Positions 8,164 through 23,818 of a stretch of 64,000 nt of DNA are shown here, in pieces. Location: NCBI GenBank assembly GCA_018304385.1, contig JAGVWJ010000005.1, positions 2,814 to 66,813 on the forward strand. The letters are read 5' to 3'. The first letter of the stretch is position 1; every line of letters begins with the position of its first letter. This stretch comes from Candidatus Micrarchaeota archaeon (GTDB taxonomy: Archaea > Micrarchaeota > Micrarchaeia > Anstonellales > Bilamarchaeaceae). The notes below the pieces were generated by a model. The model did no database searches. It was not told where the DNA came from and saw only the letters and a list, made by a program, of their open reading frames with translations. Both the position numbers and the translations under genes were made by a program.

Positions 8164-8371
8164 TCACATCACCCTGATAGCCATAGCCTTTTGGCTGAAA
8201 CTCATCTTGGAGCTTCTAGCTATCTTTTTTTATCGGGAGGACACCCGAGTTAAAGGAAAAAGAAACAAAATGTTTATAAATACAGTAGTCGAATTTACGG
8301 CGATAGTCTAATTTTTAGCTGTTTTTGAATATGAAATTATAGAAGGAAACACAAATAGACTCACTGCAATG

Positions 8372-8425
8372 CAACACAGTCTAGCTCCTGAGGAAATTAT
8401 TTTGCTTATGAGCTAGACTGTGTTG
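8372..8425. terminator. perfect 16-bp-stem hairpin downstream of the 8469-9335 gene
   Basis: CAACACAGTCTAGCTC (8372-8387) pairs with GAGCTAGACTGTGTTG (8410-8425) around a 22-nt loop. Read directly from the sequence. Confidence 0.4.
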
Positions 8426-8458
8426 TGAGCCTTGGGCCATGGGCATTGGGCATTGAGC
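8424..8458 (+). repeat. GC-rich heptanucleotide array, 5 units (tgtgagc cttgggc catgggc attgggc attgagc)
   Basis: Strict 7-nt period, consensus NNTGRGC. Member of a 4-site family (see 34341, 35114, 41499). Confidence 0.8.
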
Positions 8459-8468
8459 CATGAAAAAA

Positions 8469-9335
8469 TTAGTAGTCTTTTTTAACAGATAAGCCTTCAT
8501 CATCCAAACCAACAAATATTGGCAAGAGGCGCCCACATCTTGAAACTACTTCTTGGATTTCCGCGTGGGAAGGAAGAGGATTACTTAAAATTCCTTCACC
8601 CCATTTGGCAAGCATTTTTCTTGTAATATAAAGTGGATGTAAATTAACCAAAACAAATGCGACTCCGAATTTATTTTGCAGCTCTTTAACTCTTTCGATA
8701 GTTCTTACTGCTTCTTCTACTGCATCACGAAGCTGCATAGTTGGTACGGGCATAAGCATGACATTTATCTGCAAGCCCAAGCCAAGTTCTTTTGCCAATT
8801 GAAAAACCTGTTCCATGTGCTTTTCGCTAATCATTTTATGCAACCCACCTTCAGAAGTTCTTAATTGCACATCTTGAGTTTCATAACCAACTATAACCTC
8901 AAATCTGATGCTTGTTCTACTTATAATATAAAGAGCATGTTCTATCCTTTCTTTTCCCATTCTTGAGATAGCTATCTCAGGACGAGAGTCAATCCCAATG
9001 CATTCTAGATTTCGAAACATTAACATAGAGGTAATCGCAAAATTAAATGTTTCGTCGCTTATTTCAATCCTGCTTAAAACATTTCCTGACCCGTATAGAT
9101 TAACCTGCTTTACGAGATCTTTTTCATCACCTAGTTTTACAATATCCTCAACTAGTAAGCGCTGGTTTTCTTTTGGGTTTATACCCATTCCTAGTGTTGG
9201 AATATCACAGTGGTTGCATTGTCTTCCATAGAATACACAACCTTTAGCATTTTCGTTTTTAAGAAGTACTTCAAATCGCGGCCCTCTTGGGCTTACCCTT
9301 ATTGATCCGATTTTTCCATTTGCCATTGTAATCAA
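8469..9335 (-). CDS. radical-SAM-related / TIM-barrel-like protein, function unknown
   Basis: 288-aa ORF. Non-canonical Cys triad GCVFYGRQCNHCD (C-x6-C-x2-C). ATGA-type overlap with the upstream methyltransferase gene. Confidence 0.4.
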   Translation of the reverse strand: MITMANGKIGSIRVSPRGPRFEVLLKNENAKGCVFYGRQCNHCDIPTLGMGINPKENQRLLVEDIVKLGDEKDLVKQVNLYGSGNVLSRIEISDETFNFAITSMLMFRNLECIGIDSRPEIAISRMGKERIEHALYIISRTSIRFEVIVGYETQDVQLRTSEGGLHKMISEKHMEQVFQLAKELGLGLQINVMLMPVPTMQLRDAVEEAVRTIERVKELQNKFGVAFVLVNLHPLYITRKMLAKWGEGILSNPLPSHAEIQEVVSRCGRLLPIFVGLDDEGLSVKKDY

Positions 9336-10165
9336 CCATTAACTTTGAAGTTTTCCCAACCAGCACCGTAAGTATAACTTATAGTAAGTGAGATAATTTG
9401 TCCAGGGACCACGGAAATCTCTTTAGGCAATGGAACTATCATTGCAGGCATTGTGTCGTTTGCAGCTCCAAAATAAATACCAGGATATATTTCTACAATT
9501 GAAGTAAGACGTAACGCATTGATCTGCACCTTTGCCATTGCAGTTAATGTAATTCTAATGGTTGCATCAGGCGACATACCAGCAGAAAATAGAATTTCAC
9601 TTGCTACTACTGATGGGGTAACATCTAGCGCCTTTTCAGTGCTATCAAATTCAAAATAAGTTGTTGGAAATCTAACAAGTCCTTCTTCATCACCAAATGT
9701 TGCGTGCACTCCTTGTACCAAATTAATTATTTTTCTTGGTACTAATATAGGCTTATTTTCTAAAATTTTTAACAGATGACTTATAACTGGTATTTGGGGC
9801 TCAGCAACACACCAGGTACTAAGAAGTTCTCCGCATACAATATCAACGCTAGGAATTTCAGTTAATGATAATGCATCACCTATCATCAGCTTAATGATTC
9901 CTAATCCGTTTCTTTCAAAGTTCCTACGAGCAATTTCTGCCATTTTTTCATCTTTCTCTATAGCAATAACTTCTCTAGCACCTGCACAAGCTGCGTATAT
10001 AGCCAGCAAACCAGAACCTGTTCCGACGTCTAAAACTGTTTTTCCAGATGCAAAGTGGTCAAATGCCTTTTTGAAGGCCTGGTTTCTTCTCCTATTTCTA
10101 ACAAATTCCAGATGCCCGGCTGGTGCAAATGAACCATTATCAGTGTGTCTCAAAGCTGTTTGCAT
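9332..10165 (-). CDS. SAM-dependent methyltransferase with PRMT-like two-domain layout
   Basis: Motif I VLDVGTGSGLLAIYAACAGA, post-I VIAIEKDEKMAEIA, then a ~140-aa beta-rich C-terminal domain as in protein arginine methyltransferases. Confidence 0.6.
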   Translation of the reverse strand: MQTALRHTDNGSFAPAGHLEFVRNRRRNQAFKKAFDHFASGKTVLDVGTGSGLLAIYAACAGAREVIAIEKDEKMAEIARRNFERNGLGIIKLMIGDALSLTEIPSVDIVCGELLSTWCVAEPQIPVISHLLKILENKPILVPRKIINLVQGVHATFGDEEGLVRFPTTYFEFDSTEKALDVTPSVVASEILFSAGMSPDATIRITLTAMAKVQINALRLTSIVEIYPGIYFGAANDTMPAMIVPLPKEISVVPGQIISLTISYTYGAGWENFKVNG

Positions 10166-10250
10166 TTATTCACCCAATATAACTAAATACCACACATTTC
10201 TTATATATAAACACTTGTCGTCCCAACTACAAACGACTATAAATATTCGT

Positions 10251-11015
10251 ATGCAAAATATTATTATGGATGAAAAAGAACTGCTTGCTAAAATAGGTTT
10301 GAGCGAGAATGAATGTGAAGTATACTTAGCATTGTTAAAGCTTGGACCACTGTCTGCTTATGAGATAGCACAAAAAACAGGAATTTACAGACCGCATGTA
10401 TATGATAAGATAGAAACACTTGCCAAAAAAGGACTAGTTAGCTATGTACAAAAAGGAAAGAAAAAAATATTTTCTGCTGCACCGCCTTCAAAGATAATGG
10501 ATTATCTTAAAGAGCAAGAGAAAGATGTGCAAGAAGATATTAAACTATTAGCAGATAATCTCCAGCACCTTAGTTCTTTGTATAGTGTTTCAAAAGAAGA
10601 CACAAACGTCCAGGTGCTTATAGGGGTTGAGGGACTAAAACTTCGATTAAAAGATACTTATGAAACACCACATAAAGAGAATCTGATATTTGGCTTGAAT
10701 GAGGAAAAATATAATAAAGCATTGCCAGTTTTTATGCCGCAATATTTCAAAATACTAAAAGAAAAAGGGATAAGGGAGCGTGTCATAACGTATAAGAAGA
10801 AAGGAGTTTTCATGTTTGATAATGAAGTTACTACCTATAGATTTTTAGATACTAAAGATATGAACCCAGTAAATACTATAATTTACGGAAATAAGGTTGC
10901 GTTTATTATATGGGGTATGCCAATAACAACGATAATAATTGAAAACAAGCAACTCGCACACACGTATAGTGAGCATTTTGAATATTTATGGAAAATTGCT
11001 GATAGAAAAAATTAG
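10251..11015 (+). CDS. TrmB-family transcriptional regulator
   Basis: N-terminal LGLSENECEVYLALLKLGPLSAYEIAQKTGIYRPHVYDKIETLAKKGLV. ATG at 10251. The track ORF start at 9894 runs antisense through the neighbouring gene. Confidence 0.8.
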   Translation: MQNIIMDEKELLAKIGLSENECEVYLALLKLGPLSAYEIAQKTGIYRPHVYDKIETLAKKGLVSYVQKGKKKIFSAAPPSKIMDYLKEQEKDVQEDIKLLADNLQHLSSLYSVSKEDTNVQVLIGVEGLKLRLKDTYETPHKENLIFGLNEEKYNKALPVFMPQYFKILKEKGIRERVITYKKKGVFMFDNEVTTYRFLDTKDMNPVNTIIYGNKVAFIIWGMPITTIIIENKQLAHTYSEHFEYLWKIADRKN

Positions 11016-11429
11016 ATGTATACGAAAGGGACGAAAATGAAAAAGATACTCGTATTCGGAAACCCACTTGTACCCCAGGATTCACTAGCACTTAAAGTTG
11101 CAAAAACATTGCAAAAAGAATTTGTAGATATAGAATTTAAGGAACTTGATGCAGTAGAAGAAATACAAAACGAAGGGAAAAACCTGATTATACTTGATGT
11201 TGTTCAGGGGCTGAAAAAAACAATAGTGATAGATAATCTTGATCAAATAAAAACAACTAGCATCTATACAATGCATGATTTTGACCTTGCATGGAACTTA
11301 AAACTGCTAAAAAAAATAGGCGCAATTGAAGAAGTGAAGATAATAGGAATACCAATGAATTACGCAAAAAAGAATGCAGTCAAGGAAACAAAAAAAATCA
11401 TAACCAGTTTACTCTTAAAAAATGAGTAG
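11016..11429 (+). CDS. hydrogenase maturation endopeptidase-like protein
   Basis: KKILVFGNPLVPQDSLALKV...LIILDVVQG...MHDFDL pattern resembles HycI/FrhD-type proteases. Convergent with, and 32 nt overlapping, the large-subunit gene. Confidence 0.5.
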   Translation: MYTKGTKMKKILVFGNPLVPQDSLALKVAKTLQKEFVDIEFKELDAVEEIQNEGKNLIILDVVQGLKKTIVIDNLDQIKTTSIYTMHDFDLAWNLKLLKKIGAIEEVKIIGIPMNYAKKNAVKETKKIITSLLLKNE

Positions 11430-12696
11430 CACAACTCATGCATGGGTCATATGCCCTAATCAGTTTTTCAATTTCATATTGTATTTCGCGCTTTCTCTTT
11501 CCTTCATACAGATTCTGTTCAACGAGACGTGCAACATTCTTTTCCATACTAATTTGATTTTGGGCTGTTGGGATTACTAGATTGGCATACGTTACCTGCC
11601 CTAATTTATTTATTTTGAGATGATAATATAACGTTCCGCGCGGTGCCTCGATTGCTGCAACACCTTCACTGTCTTTCTCCAGTTTCAATACTGGGGACTT
11701 ACGCTCTTTTGGCTCCAGTTCTTCTATAATATCTAATGAACGATCTACGCAGTTAACTATCTCAATTGCCTGGGCAAGATTATTATGATAGATATTATCA
11801 GATGGAAACACCCTGAAAGCAGAACCAACATCTTCGCGAGTTTTTCGATGTAAACTGCCACCATTCAGATTCATACGCGCGAGCGCGCCAACGATATATG
11901 TTTTGCCTTCGAATTTAAATCCAAGCGCCTGCGAATATGGTATTACATTCCTAGTAAGGTGGTTAGCAAACTGTTCTTCTGGGATACAATAGTTGCGCGT
12001 AGAACAAAGTTGATCTCCAAGATAGCTAAAATCATCGTTTTTAATCGCAATATATTCGGGTTCCTGCTCTTTAAATTCAAAATTACATTTATAAAATATA
12101 TCAACGAACTCGAGCGCGTATGCGCGAACTTTTTTAAGATCAACAGCTACTGCCTTCAAATCCTCTTTTTTTGGAATTCTTACAAAGTTGCCAGGAACTG
12201 GATACATTGCATGAACTGCCCTGCCTGCAACAATGGTACTTAGCTTGTTTCCTGCAGCCTTAACATCAAATGCCTTGTGAACAAGATCATGCTCATAGCC
12301 TTCATCTGCAAAATCAAGAAGAGAATCTTTTCCAAAAAGATCAGGCAGGCAGAACAAATAAAGGTGCATTGCATGATCGCGTATATTAAGGCCATACAGG
12401 CTAAGATGGCGCAGCATAAGCGTTTGATAAGATGGAACATGGTGATATGCTTTCTCCACTGCTTCAATACAGCAGGTTAAATGTGCGATGCTGCATGTGC
12501 CACAAATCCGGGAAACAAGTTGATGGGTTGCAATGGCAGGCTTGCCACGAACTGCATTGGTAAAAAATCTTTTATTCTCGGTTATCCTCAGTTTCACATC
12601 AGTTACTTTGTTTCCTTCTACTTTGATATCTAGGTCTGCATGACCTTCAATCTTACTCAGATTATTCATATTTATATCGAAATTTCCTTTGTGCAT
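11398..12696 (-). CDS. [NiFe]-hydrogenase large subunit
   Basis: N-terminal RICGTCSIAH (RxCGxCxxxH) and C-terminal DPCMSCATH (DPCxxCxxH) Ni-Fe ligand motifs. 432 aa. Confidence 0.9.
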   Translation of the reverse strand: MHKGNFDINMNNLSKIEGHADLDIKVEGNKVTDVKLRITENKRFFTNAVRGKPAIATHQLVSRICGTCSIAHLTCCIEAVEKAYHHVPSYQTLMLRHLSLYGLNIRDHAMHLYLFCLPDLFGKDSLLDFADEGYEHDLVHKAFDVKAAGNKLSTIVAGRAVHAMYPVPGNFVRIPKKEDLKAVAVDLKKVRAYALEFVDIFYKCNFEFKEQEPEYIAIKNDDFSYLGDQLCSTRNYCIPEEQFANHLTRNVIPYSQALGFKFEGKTYIVGALARMNLNGGSLHRKTREDVGSAFRVFPSDNIYHNNLAQAIEIVNCVDRSLDIIEELEPKERKSPVLKLEKDSEGVAAIEAPRGTLYYHLKINKLGQVTYANLVIPTAQNQISMEKNVARLVEQNLYEGKRKREIQYEIEKLIRAYDPCMSCATHFLRVNWL

Positions 12697-13194
12697 TTAA
12701 ATCACTTTAAACTTTTTAAGACAATTATCAAGAGTTTTTAAAAAAACATTAGGATCCATCGGACAACCTGGGACGCGCTCATCAACCTTAACAAAGCTCT
12801 CAAGAGGATGAACTTTTTCCAGAAGATGAAATTTCTTAATGAGCGGCTTAATTTCCTTTTGAAGTTCAGCTGAAAAATTGTTCCGCTGTGCTGAAGGAAA
12901 ACCAGTACACGCACATTCCCCTATAGCGACCAAGTATTTGGAAATATGCTTTATTTTTTCAAGCTTTTTTCTCTCTTTGTCGCTGGAAATCGCACCTTCC
13001 ACAAACGCAACATCAAACGGGCCAAACTGATTTATTGATTTAAGCATCTTACAATGTCTGAATTCAATAAGTTTTTTCCACTCAAAATAATGTTCATTCA
13101 GCAACTCAACAAAAAGTATTGAACTGTCTTCGCAACAGGTAAACGTAAACCATCCAATGGCAAGTTTTTTTTGCATATTGAAAATAAGTGGCAT
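12697..13194 (-). CDS. [NiFe]-hydrogenase small subunit, minimal NuoB-like form (proximal cluster only)
   Basis: 165 aa. Cys motifs TCCEDS, GECACTG and PGCP. Directly abuts the large-subunit gene. Confidence 0.75.
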   Translation of the reverse strand: MPLIFNMQKKLAIGWFTFTCCEDSSILFVELLNEHYFEWKKLIEFRHCKMLKSINQFGPFDVAFVEGAISSDKERKKLEKIKHISKYLVAIGECACTGFPSAQRNNFSAELQKEIKPLIKKFHLLEKVHPLESFVKVDERVPGCPMDPNVFLKTLDNCLKKFKVI

Positions 13195-13226
13195 AAATTT
13201 ATTAACTTATTCAGATTGAAAGAATC

Positions 13227-14141
13227 ATGAGCAATGAAAAGGGAATAATGTTTGGATTTATTACAGCACTAATTAGTGGTGTTTCAATATTTGTAAACAG
13301 CTTTGGAGTAAGCCTAAGCGATCCTTTTGTTTATACAACCATAAAAAACGCACTTGTTGTAGTATTCATATTATCAACATTTTTTATATTCAAAAATATG
13401 CGCGAACTTTCTGCACTTACAAAAAAGCAGATTGCGCAGCTAGTGATAATTGGTTTGATTGGCGGAAGCGTTCCGTTTCTCTTATTTTTTTACGGTCTTT
13501 CGCTTGGTATAGCCTCTGTATCCTCTTTTATATTTAGGTCATTATTTATCTTTGCGTCGCTTATGGCAGTATTCTATCTTAAAGAAAAAATTGATCATAG
13601 ATTTTTTATTGGTGCGTTAATTGTTTTTATAGGAAATTTTCTTTTGGTTAAGGGTGATTTGGCATTCGGCACTGGGCAAATAATGGTTCTTATTGCAACA
13701 CTTCTATGGGCAATAGAATATAACTACTCAAGAAAGGTACTTGCAGCGCTCAGTCCAAGGGTTGTTGCATTAGGTAGAATGTTTTTCGGATCTATATTTT
13801 TGCTGGTCTTTCTTGGCGCCACTGGTAAGATTAATGCGCTTTTTGTTATTTCTTATGATATATTGCCCTGGACAATAATCGCATCATTATTCCTTTTCCT
13901 GTACGTTACTTTCTTTTATAGTGCGCTTAAATATACAACCGTATCAAATGCAACAGCTGCACTTGCACTTGGCGGACCAATAACTGCCCTACTAAATGCA
14001 GTTTTTATTGGTAAGGTTCCTGTAATAACTGAAATAATTGGTCTGCTTCTTACTGTTATAGGGGCTATTGTAATAATAGGCATCTCATCATCATTAAAAT
14101 CGATACTTCATCTAAGAGAAAATATAAGTGCGTTAAGATGA
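13227..14141 (+). CDS. EamA/DMT-family transporter
   Basis: About 10 TM helices arranged as two similar halves, typical of the drug/metabolite transporter superfamily. Confidence 0.7.
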   Translation: MSNEKGIMFGFITALISGVSIFVNSFGVSLSDPFVYTTIKNALVVVFILSTFFIFKNMRELSALTKKQIAQLVIIGLIGGSVPFLLFFYGLSLGIASVSSFIFRSLFIFASLMAVFYLKEKIDHRFFIGALIVFIGNFLLVKGDLAFGTGQIMVLIATLLWAIEYNYSRKVLAALSPRVVALGRMFFGSIFLLVFLGATGKINALFVISYDILPWTIIASLFLFLYVTFFYSALKYTTVSNATAALALGGPITALLNAVFIGKVPVITEIIGLLLTVIGAIVIIGISSSLKSILHLRENISALR

Positions 14142-14857
14142 ATACTAAAAAATTAGGTGCCGAATTGCAGGCTCGTTACTCTTTTGTACCAAACTGCCTT
14201 GGCTATTGCGGACCAAATACTTTTCAAAAAATCTATGTTAGATACCTGCAGGGACAAACAAATATCAAAAATGTTGAAAGAGAATTAAAAAAATTTATAA
14301 TACCATTTGCATACCTGAAACTTATTGCAAAAGCAAACAAAATGAAACCATGGGATTACAAAGTTGTTGAGGCATTCTGGCTTGGAAATGAATTGCTGAA
14401 CAATATAAAATACAAACAACTTAGAAACTTTATTCTACACGATTTAGTTAGGGTTGGTCTTGATAAAGAACGTGCATTAAAACTTATAGAAAAAATGCCG
14501 AAAGGCATGGTGCCGAGCCACTGCTTTCATGTTATATTTGTGCAGTTTATAACAAACAAAGTAGATAAAACAACAAAAAACTTTGACAATTGCCATGTTG
14601 GCTGGGGCAGAGTATTAACTATAAAGCCAACATCAGTTACATTGAGATATGTCGCACTTGATAAAAAGAATAATAAATACATGCTAACACCTAAAGTAAA
14701 GACGATCAAACACAGCCTCCTAAAAAATGTAAAAAAGGGAGATATTGTAACAACGCACTGGAATACTGCTATCCAGAAGATAACCAATAAACAGGCGAAA
14801 AATCTTAAGAAGTATACACTATGGAATATGAATAGATTAAACCGCATCATCCATTAA
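14138..14857 (+). CDS. conserved-looking hypothetical protein (Cys motif PNCLGYCGPN)
   Basis: 239-aa ORF with an ATGA overlap onto the EamA gene. Lys/Asn-rich native composition. No family recognised. Confidence 0.5.
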   Translation: MNTKKLGAELQARYSFVPNCLGYCGPNTFQKIYVRYLQGQTNIKNVERELKKFIIPFAYLKLIAKANKMKPWDYKVVEAFWLGNELLNNIKYKQLRNFILHDLVRVGLDKERALKLIEKMPKGMVPSHCFHVIFVQFITNKVDKTTKNFDNCHVGWGRVLTIKPTSVTLRYVALDKKNNKYMLTPKVKTIKHSLLKNVKKGDIVTTHWNTAIQKITNKQAKNLKKYTLWNMNRLNRIIH

Positions 14858-15679
14858 CATTATTGTTCTTCCTAAATTCGCGCGAACTGCTAGGCCAGGA
14901 ATAACAAGTCTGCTATCTTGCGACTCTATTATGCCAAGGCCGACTAATTCTCTAATCGCTGCGCCGTATGTAACCAAGTCGACATCCTTACTACCAAGAA
15001 CTAATTTTAATAATGCGATCTCGGATTGAGATAATCTTGCAATCCATTGGCAAGGTTTTCTTGAAATAGCTCGAACTATCGAACTGTCATCTAATTCAGG
15101 AGATTCTCTTAGAGTACTAAATACCTGATCTATAAAATAAGCTGATCCTCCGCTTAATTCTAAAAGTCTGGATACAACCTGATCGCTTAAATGAATAACA
15201 AATCCATCCAAATTAATAGTGTGAATACGATCTCTTGCCTCTTCTAATGATAATTGTGCATTCAATAAATATCTTTCAGTTCCAGGAAAATGCTCGTCAA
15301 AAACAGCTTCAACATCTGGTGCTTTATGCAATGCAAAAACAACGCGGGCGCCATTTGCGATTAATCTTTTTATTTGATTAGTATATACGATTCTATCTGC
15401 ACCAGAATGCTGAAAATTGCAAAAAGTAATTGCTTCATCTATTAATAAAACACCTGCGCGTGCGCGAGAAAGAGTTCTATAATCCAAGTTCCCGGCAACA
15501 TTATCTAAAAGCGGAGATTTGTCTTTAAGCTCCTCTGCAAGTGCGCGTAGCAATGTTGTCTTCCCGGTTTTATCCAATCCAACTATTTTTACGTGCTTTC
15601 CTTTTCTCAAAAGCGCGGCGATTTCTCCAGCCTCTTTTTGTCTTAAGGCCATAGGAACTGAAACTGCTACTGCATGCAT
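14837..15679 (-). CDS. P-loop ATPase (archaeal-ATPase/ORC-like) with C-terminal winged-helix-like region
   Basis: Walker A GLDKTGKTTLL and Walker B VLLIDEA. Ala/Arg/Leu-rich composition. Last gene of the atypical operon. Confidence 0.7.
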   Translation of the reverse strand: MHAVAVSVPMALRQKEAGEIAALLRKGKHVKIVGLDKTGKTTLLRALAEELKDKSPLLDNVAGNLDYRTLSRARAGVLLIDEAITFCNFQHSGADRIVYTNQIKRLIANGARVVFALHKAPDVEAVFDEHFPGTERYLLNAQLSLEEARDRIHTINLDGFVIHLSDQVVSRLLELSGGSAYFIDQVFSTLRESPELDDSSIVRAISRKPCQWIARLSQSEIALLKLVLGSKDVDLVTYGAAIRELVGLGIIESQDSRLVIPGLAVRANLGRTIMLMDDAV

Positions 15680-15715
15680 GATAAAAACCTTGAAATAGTA
15701 TCGTTAGAAGAATTA

Positions 15716-16717
15716 TTAACCTCTCTGAAAACGTTCGAAGATCTCTTGAAATCTTTCTAATTTTACCGTTAATTCAATAACTTCTTTGCCAAGCCTATCA
15801 ACTTCTCTTTTAATGGCCAACTTAAGTTCTGCATTTTCAGTACGAAGCCTGTTATTTTCTTGTAGCACTGAATTAGCTGCGTGGGCTAGCTCAATGTTTT
15901 GCCTTGTAAGTGCAGCGTTTTCTTCTGCAAGCCTTTCAACTCTAGGAATTAATTCAGCTAATCTCCTTTCCATGGCTTGAAGATTTGCATGTGATTGGGC
16001 CATTGCCTGATGATATGCTGCTAGTCTTTGTTCTACTGCTCCGATTGCCTGATTAAATAAAGACTCAACAAAACTTAAGAGCGTTATTTCTAATTCAACC
16101 TGCATTTTTCTAAATTTAGTAAGAGGCCTTCCACTTTTAAATAATTTTGGACTTCCATCATCATTTAGTATATATCTACCAGTTTTATCATCACGAAGAT
16201 AATCTGCCATTATTGGTTGACCGCCACCATTTAGCACATAGTCATTTTCCAAAATGCCTACTCGTCTTAATATAACTTCTATCTCTCCAGTTATTGCATC
16301 ATTAAGGGCAGTATGTGAATTTACAAGTTGTGTAACTGGCCCTTCCCTTATTGCATCCATATAAGCAGTAACATAGATTTCAACTAATCTAAGAACAACG
16401 TCTTTAAGCGGACCAAGTTGAGCTAATAATTCAGGAGGTAGATTTACATTAACCTTAAGCGGGGGTAACTTTGTGCGCCCTAACAATTCTGAGTCTTCTT
16501 CTATAGTGATATCAAAATCTGCTGGTTTTGGTGCTGGTGGTGCTCTTGACGACCCTCCTCGTGGACCTTCTACAAGCTCACCTGGTTCTACCTTAGCAAA
16601 ACATATTAAGCTTAGCGCACGCGGACCACGTGCATGTAATGGTAAAACTGCTGCCAAAGTTGGTGGCATTACATCTGAACCAGCACGACAAAGAGAACGA
16701 AACGCTAATCCTCCCAT
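15716..16717 (-). CDS. coiled-coil protein with R/G/P-rich N-module (EGPRGG)
   Basis: 333-aa ORF. The C-terminal ~110 aa are heptad-like (ERRLAELIPRVERLAEENAALTRQNIELAHAANSVLQENNRLRTENAELK). The N-terminus is homologous to the upstream gene's N-terminus. Confidence 0.6.
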   Translation of the reverse strand: MGGLAFRSLCRAGSDVMPPTLAAVLPLHARGPRALSLICFAKVEPGELVEGPRGGSSRAPPAPKPADFDITIEEDSELLGRTKLPPLKVNVNLPPELLAQLGPLKDVVLRLVEIYVTAYMDAIREGPVTQLVNSHTALNDAITGEIEVILRRVGILENDYVLNGGGQPIMADYLRDDKTGRYILNDDGSPKLFKSGRPLTKFRKMQVELEITLLSFVESLFNQAIGAVEQRLAAYHQAMAQSHANLQAMERRLAELIPRVERLAEENAALTRQNIELAHAANSVLQENNRLRTENAELKLAIKREVDRLGKEVIELTVKLERFQEIFERFQRG

Positions 16718-16828
16718 CTATCCACCATTATAAAAACTGATAAAATATGTATGGTAAGAACTATATTTAAACGTTTGTTTTAATGAAAAAAGAAGGATTT
16801 ATATAAAAAAATAGAAAAAGAAAAAAAA

Positions 16829-17746
16829 TTATTTTGGTTCTGGCTCTGCTTCGTCTTCAACACCAACTAATTTTGCTGCTGTTCGAAGTGCACCTTGCAC
16901 AACTTTCTTAACAGCTGCCAAAACATCTTTTTTAGTTGGTCTTTCATCTAAAGCTGCTTTTAGTTCTGTATTTGCTGCTTCTAATGCTTCCACTCTAGCT
17001 GCAAGAGGTCTAACTGCCTCTTGAACTGCTTCTGCAACTTGTGCTGGGGTTGCTCGTCCATCTGCTGTTGATTGTGCTTCCGAAGCTGCACTTGCTGCAC
17101 TACCTGCTGCTGTTTCTGCCTCTCCTACTCTTCCTTCTAATGCTTCCATTCTTTTAGCTGCTGAATCAGATGTAGTTTGTAATGCTCTTGTTAATTCTGT
17201 TCTTAATATACCGACAGCTTCGCTTACTGCTGCTTTAACATCATCTGGAGTTGCTTTTCCTGCTAATGCTTCTGTTAATCTTGTTTCCAACGCCGAGCAT
17301 GCTGCATCTACTGCTTTTTGATCAACCTTTCCATCTGCTGTTGTTCGCGCTGTTGCTGCTACCTGTTCTGCTGCTCCAACTTTTTCTTCTACTGCAGTCA
17401 TTCTTTGAGATGCAGAATCAGATGTGGTTTGTAATGCTCTTGTTAATTCTGTTCTTAACGTACCGATCGCTTCACTTACTGCTGCTTTAACATCATCTGG
17501 AGTTGCCCTTCCTGCTAAAAATCCTTCTATTACGCCAGCCAAAGCAACAAAAGGTGCTTCCATAAAACCTAAATTAGGAAGAGACTTTACTGCAGTTATT
17601 AAAGCTGGTGGACTACCCCCACCTCTTGGACCTTCTGCATCTGGGTCAGGTCTATTAAAACAAGGACGATTGTGCGGTCCGCCTAGGCGAGTGCTTCTTG
17701 CTGGATCAAATCCTAAAACTCTTGCTCTTTCACCTACCATAAACAC
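16829..17746 (-). CDS. Ala-rich repeat protein with R/G/P-rich N-module (EGPRGG)
   Basis: 305-aa ORF. An 84-aa-spaced internal duplication (ATPDDVKAAVSEA[IV]G[TI]LRTELTRALQTTSDSA). Four [RK][AP]T...V..AV motifs. Acidic C-terminal tail. Confidence 0.6.
   Translation of the reverse strand: MFMVGERARVLGFDPARSTRLGGPHNRPCFNRPDPDAEGPRGGGSPPALITAVKSLPNLGFMEAPFVALAGVIEGFLAGRATPDDVKAAVSEAIGTLRTELTRALQTTSDSASQRMTAVEEKVGAAEQVAATARTTADGKVDQKAVDAACSALETRLTEALAGKATPDDVKAAVSEAVGILRTELTRALQTTSDSAAKRMEALEGRVGEAETAAGSAASAASEAQSTADGRATPAQVAEAVQEAVRPLAARVEALEAANTELKAALDERPTKKDVLAAVKKVVQGALRTAAKLVGVEDEAEPEPK
17163..17266. repeat. intragenic direct repeat, copy 1 (partner 17415-17518, offset 252 bp)
   Basis: The ~104-bp copies differ at only a few positions (e.g. 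gatgtagtttgtaatgctcttgttaattctgttcttaa vs gatgtggtttgtaatgctcttgttaattctgttcttaa). Confidence 0.8.
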
Positions 17747-17829
17747 ACCTCTTCAATTTATAAAAATTGATAAGAAATGTTTTATAACAAAGGGTATTTA
17801 AATGTTTACGGAGGTGGAAAATCCAGTAT

Positions 17830-18708
17830 TTACAGTCTACTTACCTTCGTTGCTTCAGGTGACCTAGCTATTTCAATTGCTTTTCCATGATACTCTACTG
17901 CATATGCCCTAAATTCTTCAGCACTTGCAATTCTATCTATTCTTTCATAATTAGCTGCAACCTTGTCCAATACAGAAGCAGCTCTATCATATGCATCTCT
18001 TATAGCTTGATACTGTTCAACAGATTGAGAATATCTAAGACTGCGGCGTGTAGCAAGAGCTATTTTAACATTTGCGCTGAATGCCTTCATGTACATTCTT
18101 CGCTCTTTTTCATGGTCTCCAAGTTTAGCATATAAGTCCCCTCCTAGTGTATAAAGCTCTGGAAGAAAACTAGCAAAATGCATATCTGATATAGCAGACT
18201 CAACAATCCTTATTGCCTTTTGAATAAGTTCTAAATGATTGCCATTACTACCTGGAATTGCCTGTCTAAGATCAGCAGCATGAGCGAATGCAGCTGCAGC
18301 TTCTACTGGCTTACCACTTTTTTCGAAACCAAGACCTCTTTTAATCAAGGTGGATATTGTTTCACGATGAAGACTAGATGCCTTTGTATAGCATTTTCTA
18401 GCATTTTCTCTATCATGGGACACTGTGTAATAACCTGCTGCCCTTCTATATAATAATGCAGCCTTCTCATAATCGCCATTTTGTTCTGCAATGGCCGCAT
18501 CTTGCTCGTAGATGCTTGCGGCAGATTTTAAATTTCCTTTGCTAGACGGTTCGCTAGATCTAACAACTATCTGTGCTGTAGCTGGTGCAGTAGTTATATG
18601 TGGTTTCTGTGCTGCGCAACCCATAGCAATAGTTGCAACCAATGGTGCTAAAAGTCTAAAATTGACATTAGCAGACCTACCTGATGCTGACTGATAATTT
18701 AGTTTCAT
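17830..18708 (-). CDS. TPR/SNAP-like all-helical lipoprotein
   Basis: Signal peptide with lipobox (LVATIAMGC|A). Repeated helical hairpins with A..Y..A signatures (YEKAALLYRRAAGYY, ARKCYTKAS, AIRDAYDRAA). Confidence 0.6.
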   Translation of the reverse strand: MKLNYQSASGRSANVNFRLLAPLVATIAMGCAAQKPHITTAPATAQIVVRSSEPSSKGNLKSAASIYEQDAAIAEQNGDYEKAALLYRRAAGYYTVSHDRENARKCYTKASSLHRETISTLIKRGLGFEKSGKPVEAAAAFAHAADLRQAIPGSNGNHLELIQKAIRIVESAISDMHFASFLPELYTLGGDLYAKLGDHEKERRMYMKAFSANVKIALATRRSLRYSQSVEQYQAIRDAYDRAASVLDKVAANYERIDRIASAEEFRAYAVEYHGKAIEIARSPEATKVSRL

Positions 18709-18851
18709 TCAAATACACCTCATTATTTCTAAGTATTTTTTTATATCAAGTTAGATGAATACAACTGATCGAGCAATCATTCTAACTGAAAAATTGTAAA
18801 AATATATTAGCTTGGAAAGATTAATAAATATATGTAAATGTGTGATTGTGA

Positions 18852-18956
18852 TTATTTCTTTTTTAGTGGTTTTTGTTTTTCTAAGAATAAGTACTCATAA
18901 ACAAAACTAGCAAGTAGCGCTCCGAATATCGGGCCTACCCAATAGATAAATTGTGT
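18852..18956 (-). pseudogene. orphan 3' fragment of an aquaporin gene
   Basis: Hand translation gives ...STQFIYWVGPIFGALLASFVYEYLFLEKQKPLKKK*. The intact AqpM C-terminus reads ...APQFIYWVGPIFGALIAGFVYEYLFLKEAKLGKK*. No upstream coding part is present. Confidence 0.8.
18934..18955. repeat. 22-bp perfect direct repeat CCTACCCAATAGATAAATTGTG (partner 19810-19831)
   Basis: Read directly. Identity ends abruptly on the high-coordinate side of both copies, at 18956 and 19832. The ~80 nt on the low-coordinate side of each copy (18852-18933 vs 19731-19809) are only ~75% similar. Confidence 0.85.
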
Positions 18957-18973
18957 AGAATTTTGAGGATAAA

Positions 18974-19726
18974 TTAAAGAAAAAATGGAGCAAAAAAATA
19001 ACCTATTGCCCCTACAATTGCACCGCCAATGCCCCCTATAACTGGTGAAAGAATACTAAGTACAAGATCTGATCCACTTGCAGCCATTTCATAACGCCCT
19101 GTACCAATAACAAAATATGAAATAACATTGAGTGGTAACCATACACTAAACCAAATCCAAAGAAGAATAATTCCTTGAATAACTAACCCAAGATCAAAAC
19201 CATTTTTAGTAAGTACCATAGAGGTGTAAAATGAAAGGACGATCATACCTATGATTAAAGTAAACATAAAAAAGAATCTTCTCAAAAGTTCTGACTTATG
19301 GAATAGAAGTAAAAAGATAACCGAAATTGAAACAACTATGGGCGGTGCTAAAAAATTAATGAGAATGCCTTTTGCTTGTACAAAATATATGTAATTTGTA
19401 TATATACTCACAAAAAACAACAGAGGAATAGAAAACAAAGACAATAGAAAAAAAAGTACGCCTATGGGAAAGAGTAATTTAAATCTACTAAAGCATATAA
19501 TAGCCAAAACAAATGAACCTCCACCAACCATAAATATGATAGATATATCAACATTAAATGGTGGTAATAAACCATTCAAAAAAAGACCAGTAACCAGCCA
19601 GAATATTATTAAACCGCTAGTTGAAAACAGGAGGCGTTTAAGATCAAGAGAAAAACCAAATTCTTCTCTTGGAATTTTTTCTTTTAAGATTTCTTTAGAA
19701 TTTTTTGGCTTCATAAGTACAACCAA
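18974..19726 (-). CDS. polytopic membrane protein, unknown function
   Basis: 250-aa ORF with 6-7 hydrophobic helices and a Gly-rich C-terminus (GGIGGAIVGAIGYFF). It starts 4 nt after the aqpM stop and ends 17 nt before the aquaporin fragment. Confidence 0.55.
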   Translation of the reverse strand: MVVLMKPKNSKEILKEKIPREEFGFSLDLKRLLFSTSGLIIFWLVTGLFLNGLLPPFNVDISIIFMVGGGSFVLAIICFSRFKLLFPIGVLFFLLSLFSIPLLFFVSIYTNYIYFVQAKGILINFLAPPIVVSISVIFLLLFHKSELLRRFFFMFTLIIGMIVLSFYTSMVLTKNGFDLGLVIQGIILLWIWFSVWLPLNVISYFVIGTGRYEMAASGSDLVLSILSPVIGGIGGAIVGAIGYFFAPFFL

Positions 19727-19730
19727 TTAA

Positions 19731-20405
19731 TTATTTCTTCCCTAATTTCGCCTCTTTTAAAAATAAATATTCATAAACAAAGCCCGCAATTAATGCGCCG
19801 AATATTGGACCTACCCAATAGATAAATTGTGGCGCCCATATACCACTTGCCAATGCAGGACCGAATGCGCGTGCGGGATTCATTGCTGCACCAGTTTGTG
19901 TACCGCCCATCACTATATCATATATTAATACTGCACCTATTGCAAATCCAAAGAAGCCAGCTGGCGCTTGTTTGTTTACTGCAACGCCATAAATAGTTAG
20001 AATCAAGAAGAATGTAAGGACTGCTTCTAAAAGCATACCAAATCCAAAACCAAGCTCTGCTGGAAAACCATAAAGCTGCTCTCCGCTCGCTTGTGGATAC
20101 AGAAATAATAATAACAAACCTGCAACGCTAGCGCCTAATAATTGCGAGATAATATAATACACTGCTTTTACTAGCTCGATGCGCTTATTCGCAAGCATAG
20201 CAATAGTTACAGCAGGATTAAAATGCGCTCCGCTTATATGCGCTAATGAATAAATCATGGTCATTAAAACTAAGCCATGTGCTAATGCTATTCCAACAAC
20301 GCTAACTGCGCCATTTGTAAGCCCATTGACTAGAACAGCACCTGCACCAATAAAGACTAAAGCGAATGTTCCAATGAATTCTGCTACGTAATTTTTAAGT
20401 GTCAT
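19731..20405 (-). CDS. aqpM: aquaporin (MIP family, AqpM-like)
   Basis: Two NPA boxes (HFNPAVT, AMNPARA) and six TM helices. 224 aa. Confidence 0.9.
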   Translation of the reverse strand: MTLKNYVAEFIGTFALVFIGAGAVLVNGLTNGAVSVVGIALAHGLVLMTMIYSLAHISGAHFNPAVTIAMLANKRIELVKAVYYIISQLLGASVAGLLLLFLYPQASGEQLYGFPAELGFGFGMLLEAVLTFFLILTIYGVAVNKQAPAGFFGFAIGAVLIYDIVMGGTQTGAAMNPARAFGPALASGIWAPQFIYWVGPIFGALIAGFVYEYLFLKEAKLGKK

Positions 20406-20526
20406 TAATGAAAAACTAAAAACTAAAGATTTTTAATATGAAGCCCTCCTATATTTTTTACTTTTTATAAGAAAATATTGAACGGCTGACGCGGAGGAAC
20501 CGCGTTGATTAGGAGGGCAAAAGACG

Positions 20527-21060
20527 ATGGGAATTAGACCTGCAAAAGCAATTAGAGATATAAATAAGGTTGCGTGGACACGATACTCGAAGAGCAAACC
20601 AAGAAAGTCATACATAAAGGCTATGCCACATCAGGATTTACAGCAGTTTAGAATGGGTATACAAAAAGAAGACTATGATGTTATATTAAATCTGGAATGC
20701 CAAGAAGATGTAATATTACGGGATAACACAATTGAAAGCGCTCGCCAAAGCGCAAACAAACTCTTAGAAAAGAACATACCTACTGGTTATTACTTTATTG
20801 TAAGGATTTTCCCGCACCACGTAATCAGAGAAAACAAAATGATTGCTGGAGCTGGAGCAGACCGTCTACAGAAAGGTATGCGACAAAGCTTTGGCAGACC
20901 AACTGATAAGGCAGCACGCGTATATTCTGGCAAAGCGCTATTTACTGTATATACATACAAGCAATACGAACAACTAATTAGGCAGTCACTCGAAAGAGCA
21001 AAAAGAAAACTATCTGGTAGATTTAAGATAATTGAAGCTAAAAAAGGAAAGGCAGCATAG
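20527..21060 (+). CDS. rpl10e: 50S ribosomal protein L10e (uL16)
   Basis: N-terminus MGIRPAKAIRDINKVAWTRYSKSKPRKSYIK, with the internal RIFPHHVIRENKM...GAGADRLQKGMR motif. Confidence 0.9.
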   Translation: MGIRPAKAIRDINKVAWTRYSKSKPRKSYIKAMPHQDLQQFRMGIQKEDYDVILNLECQEDVILRDNTIESARQSANKLLEKNIPTGYYFIVRIFPHHVIRENKMIAGAGADRLQKGMRQSFGRPTDKAARVYSGKALFTVYTYKQYEQLIRQSLERAKRKLSGRFKIIEAKKGKAA

Positions 21061-21179: not shown

Positions 21180-22802
21180 ATGGCAGGGGAGGATCGTGTT
21201 AGCGTTGATGATGCACTAATCAGCACAGATGTTGATAAGTTAATAAGAACTATTTCTACTAAGAAAAGAGTAAATATATACGAACTAGAAAAAGAAACAG
21301 GCATACACAAAAAAACAATAGATAAATGGATCCATGTTTTAGAGGATGAAGGATACATCAGAATAGAATACAAATTCACAAATACTTATGTTGTTTGGCT
21401 CGGTGCAGTACCAGCTAGCGCTCCAGAGGAGGAAATAGAATATGAGGTAATTAAGGAGAGCGACTCACCATTCAAAACAGATATAAAAAATGAAATTGAA
21501 AAACCTGAAGTAACTGTGCCAGAGGTCGTTAGCAAACCGATAGAAACAGTACAAGAAATTGAAAAGGTAGATGAGGAAAATGGTAAAGAAGAAATCCCAA
21601 CTAATATCGAGGAACCAAAAGAGTATGAATCTATAAAAATTGAACAAATAAAGGAAAGAGTATACGCTTATAGCCCAAAAGAAACTGCAGAAAAGAAGAA
21701 GATAAAAGAGGTAGTAAACGAATATCTTGACGAAATAAACAGACAGAAAACTGAGATTGAAAAACTAAAGCAGGAGAAAGAAAAATTATACAGAAACAGG
21801 TATATGACATTGGAAAATAAAATAGAAGGAGATATCGTAGCTATAACAGAGCGCGTTTTGGAAAAGGAAAGTCGCATTTTAGAGCTTAAAGAAAGGGTAT
21901 TAGAGCTACCAGATAAGGTAGATGAAGTAGAAAAATTACACAAAACAATGGAAAGAATAGAGAGGGAAGGGCGCGCCATTATTAAGGTTACAAAAGGAAA
22001 GGTAACCGACTTTTTGGATCATCTAAAGAAATCAGAAGAAGCAATAAATGAAGGGATAGCAAGGGGAAAAGAAACAGTAGAAAACGAAAAAACCAAGGTT
22101 AACCAATTAGAACAGACAAGTATTTCTATAAATGAAAGAGTAGATAATATAAAATCAACAATCGATCAAACACAAGGTGCTATTGACCAACTTACAGATT
22201 CAATGAAAGAGATGCTAAATCAACTAGAAGAGGCAACTGAAACCAAGGTAGAGATAGCTGAGATTACCAATAGAGTAAGGGTATCTGTTGACAAAAAAGA
22301 ACAGGAGTTAGAAACATTAGAAAATGAATTAGTTGAAATCAAAAAACTAGAGCAATGGATAATGGAATATCTTAATGATTATGAAAACAAGATTGGCGAG
22401 ATAGAGCAATATGTTAAAAATAGTGACGATGAATTAGACAGAATAAGAGAAGCTGCTGAAGGAGAATATATAAGGAAATATCTAAAAGAACTCGAAGGCC
22501 TTACTAGCATGTATGAAACTGAGCTAGATTATGCAGTAGCAGAAGAAAAAGGAATAGAAGATAGGATTGGTGAGGCAAGAGGAAGATTAAACGAGTTAAT
22601 ATTAGATAGCAAAACCATGATAAAAAAACTTCATAAAGATTCTACAAGTTTAGAAGAATTTGAACCAGTTGTTAGAAAGGTAAGGGACAAAGCAGAAAAG
22701 ACAAAGAAAACTGTTGAGGAAAAGGAAAAGGAGCGCGACAGGCTTAGCGAGGATATTAGAGGAAGAAGGACAAAGAAGAGTAAGAAAGGGAAGAAGAAGT
22801 AG
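21180..22802 (+). CDS. long coiled-coil protein with N-terminal winged-helix domain
   Basis: 540 aa. N-terminal wHTH (VNIYELEKETGIHKKTIDKWIHVLEDEGYIRI), then ~400 aa of E/K-rich heptad sequence and a basic tail. Confidence 0.6.
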   Translation: MAGEDRVSVDDALISTDVDKLIRTISTKKRVNIYELEKETGIHKKTIDKWIHVLEDEGYIRIEYKFTNTYVVWLGAVPASAPEEEIEYEVIKESDSPFKTDIKNEIEKPEVTVPEVVSKPIETVQEIEKVDEENGKEEIPTNIEEPKEYESIKIEQIKERVYAYSPKETAEKKKIKEVVNEYLDEINRQKTEIEKLKQEKEKLYRNRYMTLENKIEGDIVAITERVLEKESRILELKERVLELPDKVDEVEKLHKTMERIEREGRAIIKVTKGKVTDFLDHLKKSEEAINEGIARGKETVENEKTKVNQLEQTSISINERVDNIKSTIDQTQGAIDQLTDSMKEMLNQLEEATETKVEIAEITNRVRVSVDKKEQELETLENELVEIKKLEQWIMEYLNDYENKIGEIEQYVKNSDDELDRIREAAEGEYIRKYLKELEGLTSMYETELDYAVAEEKGIEDRIGEARGRLNELILDSKTMIKKLHKDSTSLEEFEPVVRKVRDKAEKTKKTVEEKEKERDRLSEDIRGRRTKKSKKGKKK

Positions 22803-23366: not shown

Positions 23367-23640
23367 AATTAATAAAACGAACTACTTTTTCATTTTCTCT
23401 GATTTCAAAAATTAGAACGTAGCTACCAATATGAGTTCTGCAACAGCCTTTCAAAACGTTTCCTAGCTCTTTATAATGATGCGGATTTTCTAAAATCTGG
23501 CTTATTTTCTTCTTAACCCGTTCATATGTTTGAGGATCATGTTTGGCTAATTTTTTCATTAAATCAAAAAAATAAGCGCTTTGTTCAATTGAGTAGGGCA
23601 AAGGATCACCCGCTTTCTTTGATGGCCCTGTCCATTTCAT
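23338..23640 (-). CDS. RelE/ParE-superfamily toxin
   Basis: C-terminal pattern CRTHIGSYVLIFEIRENEKVVRFINFGHHDDVY. Overlaps the upstream small antitoxin-like gene. Confidence 0.65.
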   Translation of the reverse strand: MKWTGPSKKAGDPLPYSIEQSAYFFDLMKKLAKHDPQTYERVKKKISQILENPHHYKELGNVLKGCCRTHIGSYVLIFEIRENEKVVRFINFGHHDDVYR

Positions 23641-23818
23641 CTACCGAACTAAAGCTTACTTTTTTCCCTTTTTCCATCTCTTTTCTAAGTTCCTCAGTTT
23701 TCTTAATAAAGTTTTCTTTCATTGGCCTCTCATGTAGCTCTTCTTCTACGATGTTCATTATGTATTTATACTTAAGTAATTCTTCGTACTCGGTTTTTGA
23801 GATAGTAACACTTTCCAT
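23606..23818 (-). CDS. antitoxin-like small protein
   Basis: 70-aa acidic ORF immediately upstream of, and overlapping, the RelE-like gene. Confidence 0.5.
   Translation of the reverse strand: MESVTISKTEYEELLKYKYIMNIVEEELHERPMKENFIKKTEELRKEMEKGKKVSFSSVDEMDRAIKESG

Follow-up and report, generated by a model that had tools for sequence, protein, structure and literature searches.

A block of orphan genes encoding a P-loop ATPase and two fibrous proteins with a common N-terminal tag in groundwater Micrarchaeota

Gene Layout of the Block

This report concerns a block of four genes on the minus strand of a 64-kb stretch of DNA (64,000 nucleotides, the window) from a groundwater population of 'Candidatus Micrarchaeota'. 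Read from the 5′ end, the block encodes a lipoprotein of tetratricopeptide repeat (TPR)/SNAP-like type (17830..18708, 292 amino acids (aa)), an Ala-rich α-helical repeat protein (16829..17740, 303 aa, or 305 aa from an alternative GTG start at 17746), a coiled-coil protein (15716..16717, 333 aa), and a P-loop NTPase, called the ATPase below (14837..15679, 280 aa). The last three genes are referred to as the core. All four proteins are entered in the database as hypothetical proteins (J4450_01030 to J4450_01045), and nothing on them was found in the literature. The original prediction, made from the letters of this DNA alone, had listed four co-oriented minus-strand open reading frames (ORFs), and these were found in the places it gave; the Walker A motif GLDKTGKTT, the Walker B motif VLLIDEA, and the lipobox-type signal IAMGC were likewise confirmed in the sequence. 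It had recognised none of the three non-ATPase proteins, and indeed they are without a recognisable specific family. In scans of all four proteins against Pfam, PHROGs, NCBIfam, and PADLOC, no match exceeded the threshold except marginal TPR and SNAP matches of the TPR protein. An Rfam scan over 14000-20600 at E ≤ 0.1 gave no match.

Both borders of the block are real. At one end, the predicted 21-nt convergent overlap was found, the partner being a DUF6390 gene (14138-14857). At the other end lies the orphaned 3′ end of an aquaporin (MIP) gene (18852..18956, minus strand), recognised by a repeat match and by its C-terminus, in which 18879-18955 matches 19755-19831 at 83%; it marks the left edge of a variable region. 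The original prediction had asked that a chimeric assembly be excluded at these edges. Independent assemblies of different samples, at least six in number and drawn from ENA megahit contigs, ANAN16 scaffolds, JGI, and Logan, reproduce one or both junctions, and a chimera is therefore excluded.

The Two Fibrous Proteins and Their Common Tag

The Ala-rich and the coiled-coil proteins, the two fibrous proteins of the block, are homologous in their first 35-45 residues and unrelated beyond. Alignment of their profiles with hhalign covered 35 columns with a probability of 96.9% and E 2e-10. The common segment, or tag, has the consensus ...RGP(H/F)NRPCF..PEPD.EGP.G.G..., is rich in Pro, Gly, and Arg, and is predicted to be disordered. 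A hidden Markov model (HMM) of the tag motif matches only the two fibrous genes, in the window as well as in related loci. A word-indexed search with a four-sequence tag profile returned one fragment and missed the full-length proteins of the query itself, which are present in the database, so that absence cannot be inferred from it.

Two tag subtypes were observed, 'GPHNRPCF' and 'GPRALSL[IV]CF', and the window has one of each. The Ala-rich protein carries subtype A (...GGPHNRPCFNRPDPDAEGPRGGG..., coding region 17606..17740, minus strand) and the coiled-coil protein carries subtype B (...LHARGPRALSLICF...EGPRGG...). In L013, a sister Micrarchaeota, both genes have the first subtype, 'GPHNRPCF' (96 nt, 83% identical), while in strain L016 both have the second, 'GPRALSL[IV]CF'. 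Gene conversion, or selection for matching tags in the two proteins, is suggested by this pattern.

Several readings of the tag and of the block were considered and rejected. The differences from L013 in the tag region are mainly synonymous third-position changes, which indicates that the region is translated; a conserved untranslated RNA or DNA element was therefore dismissed. The tag was also rejected as a class III (pilin) or Sec/Tat signal, since it has no consistent hydrophobic core. No signal peptide or transmembrane segment was predicted in the Ala-rich, coiled-coil, or ATPase proteins. Finally, an ESCRT-III/Vps4-like or PspA-like system was rejected because the matches were insignificant and the ATPase is without an MIT domain.

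The coiled-coil protein consists of the N-terminal tag, a middle part that varies, and ~130 C-terminal residues that form a heptad coiled coil; residues 205-333 show heptad periodicity with a peak at 3.5 residues. Pfam and NCBIfam scans of this protein gave non-specific coiled-coil matches only. In the AlphaFold2 (AF2) model of the Ala-rich protein, residues 1-45 are disordered and are followed by helices of 18-60 residues; with a predicted local distance difference test score (pLDDT) of 48, the model is too poor for a fold search, and only its secondary structure was used. The gene contains two copies of a 252-nt (84-aa) tandem repeat (17104..17518, minus strand), of which 17104-17266 and 17356-17518 are 85% identical. 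A C-terminal motif, ERPTKxDV....KKxVQGALRTAAKL, is retained even in a homologue of 40% identity. Relatives of the Ala-rich protein form only 5 clusters among 5.8 billion, and a sequence search of the PDB with it returned noise only.

The Ala-rich gene is also variable among strains. Strain L016 is 99.93% identical to the window over 7829-17279, past which the identity drops abruptly to 78% with insertions and deletions in the 5′ half of the Ala-rich gene, and its product is a 235-aa mosaic protein. Judging from this alignment, position 17279 is a sharp recombination breakpoint in L016. A 212-aa variant, seen in two independent k141 assemblies, has lost 273 nt between direct repeats of 22 nt (17057-17078 and 17330-17351). 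A TTA-to-TGA nonsense change was found in one assembly, and an additional copy of the repeat occurs together with an N-gap in one scaffold. The TPR gene adjoins the Ala-rich gene in every strain contig covering it.

Promoters and Transcription Units

The two fibrous genes are tied to each other by the common tag and also by near-identical promoters with a private element. Both promoters have the same layout: a box (AAACRTTTAAATA), ~15 nt, the element ACAYWYYTTATCAR, a GGTGG/GAGGTG ribosome-binding site, and ATG. The B recognition element (BRE)/TATA-like box of the Ala-rich gene, AAACATTTAAATA, lies at 17795..17807 (minus strand) and has an exact copy upstream of the coiled-coil gene, where motif search placed the box AAACGTTTAAATA of the coiled-coil/ATPase unit at 16764..16776 (minus strand); these are the two exact matches in 64 kb. 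The private promoter or initiator element of the Ala-rich gene, ACATTTCTTATCAA (17767..17780, minus strand), is ~15 nt (14-16) downstream of the TATA box, and its second copy, ACATATTTTATCAG (16737..16750, minus strand), is in the promoter of the coiled-coil gene. Exact matches to the pattern ACAYWYYTTATCAR occur in the window only at these two positions.

The layout, including the private element, is kept at equivalent positions in L013 and in L026. The latter is a contig of 853 nt encoding an Ala-rich homologue of 40% identity, and it shows a second copy of the promoter layout after the T-rich terminator of this homologue, which implies a coiled-coil-type gene downstream. Across the three lineages the promoters are conserved more strongly than the encoded proteins.

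An oligo-T tract, similar to an archaeal terminator and read from the sequence, is located 3′ of the Ala-rich gene (16795..16828, minus strand), with a like arrangement in L026. Between the coiled-coil and ATPase genes there is a gap of 36 nt with a Shine-Dalgarno-like AAGGT site, and L013 also has 36 nt and a Shine-Dalgarno-like site. We infer three transcription units from these signals: the TPR gene, the Ala-rich gene, and the coiled-coil plus ATPase genes, the last two being the only pair that looks co-transcribed. The single four-gene operon of the original prediction was not borne out in view of the separate conserved promoters, the oligo-T tract, and the lack of the TPR gene in L013. 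A sigma-70/terminator scan remained below the shuffled expectation; its models are not applicable to archaea.

The ATPase

In its AF2 model (pLDDT 63), the ATPase has a P-loop core of five strands, a helical lid, and a winged helix at the C-terminus. The P-loop begins at residue 34 and there is no N-terminal domain. Walker A and B motifs are present, and the G, the K, and the first D are invariant or near-invariant in an alignment of the five-member family. The top Foldseek matches were RuvB, PAB2304 (2qen), SSO1545 (2fna), NLR/CED-4, MalT (8bob), and Hda, with template modelling (TM) scores of 0.33-0.37, while a PDB sequence search gave P-loop noise only.

At the sequence level, the ATPase family aligned by hhalign with the ATPase_2-like proteins P0008/9/11/12 over 261 columns (probability 98.6%, E 1.3e-15). 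These proteins themselves reach PF01637 at 22-32 bits (cut-off 33.2) and nSTAND1 at 26.4 against 27.1, and AAA_16 is also just below threshold. The ATPase of the block did not match Pfam PF01637, fell short of AAA_16 (14.2 against 32.6), nSTAND3 (14.4 against 27.2), and AAA_22 (18.9 against 27), and passed no NCBIfam model. A GxP motif in the helical domain is said to be the STAND signature, as Leipe et al. reportedly described in 2004. At the corresponding position the family has SGGSAYF, SGRSFYF, or SGQTVHF and distant relatives have GGRP; the Gly is kept and the Pro is lost. STAND proteins typically carry fused sensor or effector domains, of which none was found in the ATPase, the chain stopping at residue 280 after its winged helix.

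The comparison with the archaeal ATPase_2 (PF01637)/STAND group is therefore one of shared architecture with clear differences. In common are the P-loop domain, Walker A, an hhhhDE Walker B, a helical lid with a G-G-x motif, the C-terminal winged helix, and an 'L-x-a/p-L-s-x-E-E' segment after strand 5, and the solved ATPase_2 examples PAB2304/2qen and SSO1545/2fna are both among the top Foldseek matches. The block ATPase differs in that the Pro of GxP is replaced by Ala, Ser, or Thr, in having no sensor or effector, in its length of only 280 aa, and in its sub-threshold scores. We regard it as a very rare, remote relative of this group, as judged from sequence profiles, and do not file it as a PF01637 member. 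It may be described as working like a STAND/ATPase_2-type nucleotide switch. For PF01637 proteins themselves, we know of no established function.

RuvB and the ORC/Cdc6-type AAA+ proteins share the order of AAA+ core, lid, and winged helix, and RuvB is the best Foldseek match (E 6e-6 to 1e-4). Nevertheless, the identity is 14-17%, the TM scores of 0.33-0.37 were obtained on a model of pLDDT 63, and no RuvB or Cdc6 family was matched at the sequence level; the block also lacks RuvA and any replication-origin or DNA-repair context. From classical AAA+ unfoldases (Vps4, Cdc48, spastin) the ATPase differs by the absence of a Pfam AAA (PF00004) match and of an N-terminal substrate-binding domain, and Vps4 and spastin were only low-ranked Foldseek matches (E > 2e-3, TM 0.26-0.29).

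The family is very small. Its relatives make up three clusters among 5.8 billion clusters, an exhaustive HMM search through 1.84 billion representatives yielded four close members and five weak matches, and the family size comes to ~4-6 members among 15 billion proteins. Homologues with 36-42% identity lie on three other archaeal contigs (neighbourhoods examined: L014 8235-10864, L025 286-2537, and the JGI 3300042731 contig). In these lineages the ATPase homologue always follows a Cys-rich PD40-propeller lipoprotein, and the copies sequenced in L014 and L025 share 70% identity. On both longer contigs, L014 and that of P0006, the ATPase is located near TyrRS and AlaRS and precedes a Big-domain surface protein of ~720 aa, while on the short L025 contig adenylosuccinate synthetase is downstream. 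In L014 and L025, for which DNA is available, the ATPase has its own promoter. As the homologues occur in a different, stable context, the ATPase is older than its partnership with the coiled-coil genes.

The TPR Lipoprotein

The TPR protein has an N-terminal signal peptide with a lipobox (LLAPLVATIAMG followed by C), with IAMG directly before C31. The rule of PROSITE PS51257 asks for a basic n-region, a hydrophobic h-region, and [LIVMFWSTAG]2-[LIVMFYSTAGCQ]-[AGS]-C within residues 15-35. The TPR protein conforms to it with MKLNYQSASGRSANVNFRLLAPLVATIAMG-C31, its most hydrophobic 19-residue window being 15-33, and the processing is predicted. Two marginal Pfam matches, TPR_8 (25.8 against 25.7) and SNAP (25.2 against 25.0), are above the gathering threshold; the PDB sequence search gave weak, noise-level matches to designed consensus TPR proteins. 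Compared with TPR/SNAP-like helical repeat proteins, no specific TPR subfamily was matched, and the lipoprotein-type signal would put the block protein outside the cytoplasm.

The gene has no private promoter element and is absent from L013, and no paralogue or homologue of it was found in any fetched locus. By this distribution it is peripheral, outside the conserved core. The envelope-associated apparatus imagined in the original prediction finds no support in the other three proteins, which show neither a signal peptide nor a transmembrane segment.

The Locus in Related Genomes

The position of the core was compared among relatives. In L013 (GCA_053535495.1), the junction between MIP and TrmB holds the Ala-rich (257/258 aa), coiled-coil (331 aa), and ATPase (296 aa) genes. 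In L017, a slightly more distant Micrarchaeota, MIP directly abuts TrmB, which leaves an empty site. In L018, another Micrarchaeota, unrelated genes follow MIP, including an MNT (nucleotidyltransferase plus helix-turn-helix (HTH)) gene and an unannotated 144-aa ORF that is its possible partner; no TrmB homologue was detected on the L018 locus. In the window, the order is a 246-aa membrane gene, the MIP fragment, the TPR gene, and the three core genes, then DUF6390, EamA, and [NiFe]-hydrogenase genes. L013 has neither the TPR gene nor the membrane gene of 246 aa, and everything listed here after the core is missing from it too.

The MIP/TrmB junction therefore has a different gene content in each genome examined, and presence/absence polymorphism at this conserved site was observed among the relatives. 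On these comparative grounds the junction is a hotspot of variable content and the three-gene core an accessory island. The accessory module proposed originally is supported in this respect by the empty site of L017, where the aquaporin abuts TrmB.

Divergence between the window and L013 was estimated by the Nei-Gojobori method. Flank proteins are 85-96% identical, compared with 58% (Ala-rich), 29% (coiled-coil), and 55% (ATPase) for the core. Synonymous divergence (dS) of the core, 0.70-1.23, is inside the flank range of 0.83-1.97, although dS is near saturation and in the Ala-rich gene is also lowered by codon bias. Nonsynonymous divergence (dN) is 0.28-0.75 in the core against 0.025-0.08 in the flanks, and dN/dS is 0.50 for the Ala-rich gene, 0.61 for the coiled-coil gene, and 0.29 for the ATPase gene against 0.02-0.08 for the flanks. 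A dS within the flank range together with the synteny in L013 means that the core was present in the common ancestor. By this comparison its inheritance has been vertical from the divergence of the L013 lineage onwards, if not for longer, and it is fast-evolving at the protein level. The replacement by an allele from a distant lineage was rejected because dS matches the flanks. Rapid protein evolution, recombination in the Ala-rich gene, and gain and loss of repeats indicate weak or diversifying constraint, which would be in keeping with a part in conflict or in interactions with a host.

Signs of a mobile element were sought as well. There is no tRNA gene in the window, and no integrase or viral hallmark family, PHROG included, was matched by the block proteins. 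The ATPase alignment found nothing in IMG/VR, tblastn with the Ala-rich protein had no match among GenBank phages, and a Foldseek comparison of the ATPase model with the viral structures of BFVD gave generic AAA+ matches only. No flanking repeats or att-type scars were found around the L013 island, and the only long direct repeat, of 77 nt, brackets the 246-aa membrane gene and not the block. Searches with the ATPase alignment in GTDB genomes and JGI metagenome contigs, and with the Ala-rich alignment in metagenome contigs, revealed no related loci.

Composition and Codon Use

The original prediction had singled out the block as compositionally foreign. The unusual amino-acid composition, Ala/Arg-rich and Lys/Ile/Asn-poor for the window, was confirmed by computed fractions. 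The Gly, Ala, Arg, and Pro fraction (GARP) of the four proteins is 0.27-0.41 against a background of 0.21 ± 0.05, the fraction of K+I+N+F+Y is 0.09-0.24 against 0.31 ± 0.04 (z −1.7 to −4.9), and R/(R+K) is 0.56-0.67 against 0.33. The Ala-rich gene is the sole extreme outlier in protein composition and the ATPase is a mild one; the TPR protein carries the amino-acid signature of the block too.

The DNA gives a different picture. A higher GC content was found only weakly: 0.393 in the block against 0.364 ± 0.010 in windows of equal size (z = 3.0), with 0.42 attained only in the 17-18 kb kilobase. The excess is confined to codon positions 1 and 2 (GC12, z +1.4 to +4.8) and absent from position 3, where GC content (GC3) is 0.13-0.25 in the block, below the background of 0.29. 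The codon log-likelihood conditioned on amino acids is 0.21-0.37 for the block genes against ~0.14 for the background. The Ala-rich gene is the most codon-biased ORF of the window (GC3 z = −5.9): GCA makes up 81% of its Ala codons against 54% in the background, TTA 67% of its Leu codons against 32%, and 60% of its codons have A in the third position against 38%. Foreignness at the DNA level was thus not borne out; with hyper-native codon use and GC3 below average, the codon signature of the block is the opposite of foreign and amplifies the window's own preference. Orthologues of the core in L013 share this signature, which makes it an old property of these genes. The 'GC-rich' look is a long-standing property of the proteins, encoded by the A-ending codons preferred by the genome.

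Neighbouring Genes

The 246-aa multi-pass membrane gene (18974-19714) has no family match, and the aquaporin 3′ fragment (18852-18956) is located just past its stop. The C-terminus of the fragment, ...LEKQK, resembles the L013-type MIP, while the intact aquaporin (19731-20405) has a 3′ end similar to that of the L017 type. The arrangement suggests a recombination scar, in which an incoming aquaporin 3′ end with the membrane gene displaced the old 3′ end.

A second variable segment is the five-gene stretch between the ATPase and TrmB (11016-14857), comprising DUF6390, EamA, the [NiFe]-hydrogenase small and large subunits, and a 130-aa ORF. It is absent from L013, where the stop of the ATPase is 2 nt from that of TrmB. 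A few kb from the block, a ParE-toxin-family gene shows presence/absence variation within the population; it is found at L001 1897-2199 and L011/L012 4926-5228 (window ~23400-23800) and is not called in L002 and L004.

In L018 (7634-12535), the aquaporin gene precedes an orphan of 833 aa, an Arg/Ala-rich HEAT-like protein of 390 aa, the MNT-like gene, and the 144-aa ORF. At its N-terminus (LHRRSLGPFYNREPTP) the HEAT-like protein bears a faint resemblance to the tag of the fibrous proteins; the motif HMM did not pick it up, and it may be a chance likeness.

Another 144-aa protein, an Ala-rich membrane protein of the window (7729-8163), is highly codon-biased (log-likelihood 0.27) and has no family match. 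Its L013 counterpart is 94% identical, and the dS of 0.26 between them is unusually low; ORFs on L017, L019, and L020 have N-terminal sequences resembling it. Beside the L10e gene, 21180-22802 encodes a Lys-rich coiled-coil protein of 540 aa with weak matches to an N-terminal Lrs14-type HTH and to SMC-like coiled coils, conserved in L013 (85%), L017 (65%), and L020 (36%). This native coiled-coil protein uses Lys (0.13), in contrast to the Arg and Ala of the block proteins.

Proposed Function and Alternative Explanations

Our working interpretation, put forward tentatively and with rather less than even confidence, is that the block is a lineage-restricted accessory island whose three-gene core acts as a self-contained module, the ATPase regulating or remodelling the two tagged coiled-coil proteins. 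In such a module the NTPase would be the nucleotide-dependent switch. Through its winged helix it could bind the private element ACAYWYYTTATCAR and control both transcription units, its own included. It could also recognise the common N-terminal tag and govern how a cytoplasmic scaffold of the two coiled-coil proteins is assembled or turned over. Both actions are conceivable, singly or together. The codon bias would point to high expression. Of the ATPase-driven or regulated filament-forming apparatus suggested at the outset, the regulation of fibrous proteins by the ATPase accordingly stays plausible, while the envelope location is unsupported. No known system among the Pfam, PHROGs, NCBIfam, and PADLOC scans matches the block. 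A functional analogy, and no more than that, is offered by MalT-type STAND regulators, which combine a nucleotide switch with a DNA-binding domain and serve a small dedicated regulon, here two private promoters with one element; MalT is far larger and includes a sensor domain and an HTH of LuxR type, and DNA binding by the block ATPase is hypothetical.

Several observations weigh against this interpretation. The ATPase model is only moderately confident (pLDDT 63, TM ~0.35 to its matches), and the winged helices of STAND and AAA+ proteins often do not bind DNA. On the three other archaeal contigs, the ATPase homologues have a different conserved context without coiled-coil partners, which means that the ATPase does not need these partners. 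Codon bias may not report expression in this organism, as the codon score of the L10e ribosomal protein gene is average, and high dN/dS in coiled coils can simply mean low constraint. A bolder version, in which a minimal 'NOD-only' STAND-like NTPase reads the tag and controls fibre or scaffold assembly in an undescribed self-regulating module serving immunity or the symbiont-host interface of a DPANN archaeon, we consider distinctly unlikely; here gene conversion would keep tag and reader matched while the remaining parts of the proteins diversify.

A more specific proposal, compatible with the module just described, is a defence system against viruses or mobile elements, with the NOD-only STAND-like NTPase as sensor or switch and the tagged coiled-coil proteins as partners or effectors. 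The STAND/ATPase_2-like homology of the ATPase, the fast protein evolution and allelic mosaicism, and the placement in a variable hotspot, where L018 has an MNT gene and a 144-aa ORF without family match and where strains differ in whether they have a ParE toxin gene close by, would all suit such a role. Nevertheless, no PADLOC-DB 2.0 system was matched beyond local P-loop (mad8, 24 bits) and coiled-coil JetC (13.6 bits) matches, there is no recognisable effector domain (nuclease, protease, TIR, pore-former), and the strong promoter and extreme codon bias of the Ala-rich gene better suit an abundant structural protein, so that defence appears not very likely. The same fibrous proteins might instead be exported through the tag by an unrecognised route and form surface fibrils anchored by the TPR lipoprotein, varying in the manner of streptococcal M proteins as a result of contact with hosts or viruses. 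M proteins are likewise α-helical fibres with recombining tandem repeats and mosaic 5′ regions among strains, as the Ala-rich protein is, and the analogy ends there, since the block proteins are archaeal and have no signal peptide, cell-wall anchor, or sequence similarity to them. Repeat-number variation and the hypervariable 5′ half of the Ala-rich gene do recall surface antigens, a common N-terminal tag is how a targeting signal is expected to look, the TPR protein has its signal peptide and lipobox, and ATPase homologues elsewhere adjoin secreted lipoproteins and Big-domain surface proteins. We consider this explanation unlikely: the tag of the Ala-rich protein has no hydrophobic core and is predicted to be disordered, the block encodes no membrane or secretion component, L013 keeps the three core genes without the TPR gene, and in other lineages the lipoprotein and the ATPase are parted by an oligo-T tract and a separate promoter.

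Relaxed constraint on decaying or functionless orphan genes would account for dN/dS of 0.3-0.6, for the nonsense allele in one assembly, and for the extremely narrow taxonomic range. It is improbable in the face of ORFs intact in three lineages after dS ~1, dN/dS below 1, the strongest codon bias of the window, and the strong conservation of tag, C-terminal motif (ERPTKxDV...QGALRTAAKL), and promoters. Least probable is an operon recently acquired from a GC-rich donor or a virus, a recent event being largely refuted. The 'GC-rich-type' amino acids, unlike those of the neighbouring native coiled-coil protein (A 0.04, K 0.13), the empty site of L017, and the aquaporin fragment at the left edge of the block speak in its favour. 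It does not agree with GC3 under the genome mean and hyper-native codon use, nor with the lack of a tRNA gene in the window, of an integrase or viral hallmark family among the block proteins, and of any viral match (IMG/VR, GenBank phages; in BFVD generic AAA+ only), and the 77-nt direct repeat brackets the 246-aa membrane gene rather than the block. Given the synteny of the core in L013 and a dS matching that of the flanks, the claim of recent acquisition had to be given up, while an ancient gain of the core in the common ancestor is possible.

Implications

For the scanning of genomes, the lesson is that 'GC-rich-looking' proteins in an AT-rich genome are not proof of foreign DNA. A native module that evolves fast can be told from a recent import by position-specific GC, by codon preference conditioned on amino acids, and by dS relative to the flanks.

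The block represents a very small orphan gene set in Micrarchaeota, the two fibrous families being about as rare as the ATPase family. Fast-evolving hypothetical genes in variable islands are common; here the internal logic of tag, private element, and co-transcribed switch-type ATPase makes specific binding experiments possible for proteins otherwise filed as 'hypotheticals'. DPANN archaea rely on host-cell contact, and their lineage-specific, fast-evolving proteins are little known. The module may be regarded as a reasonable candidate for host-contact functions in DPANN archaea.

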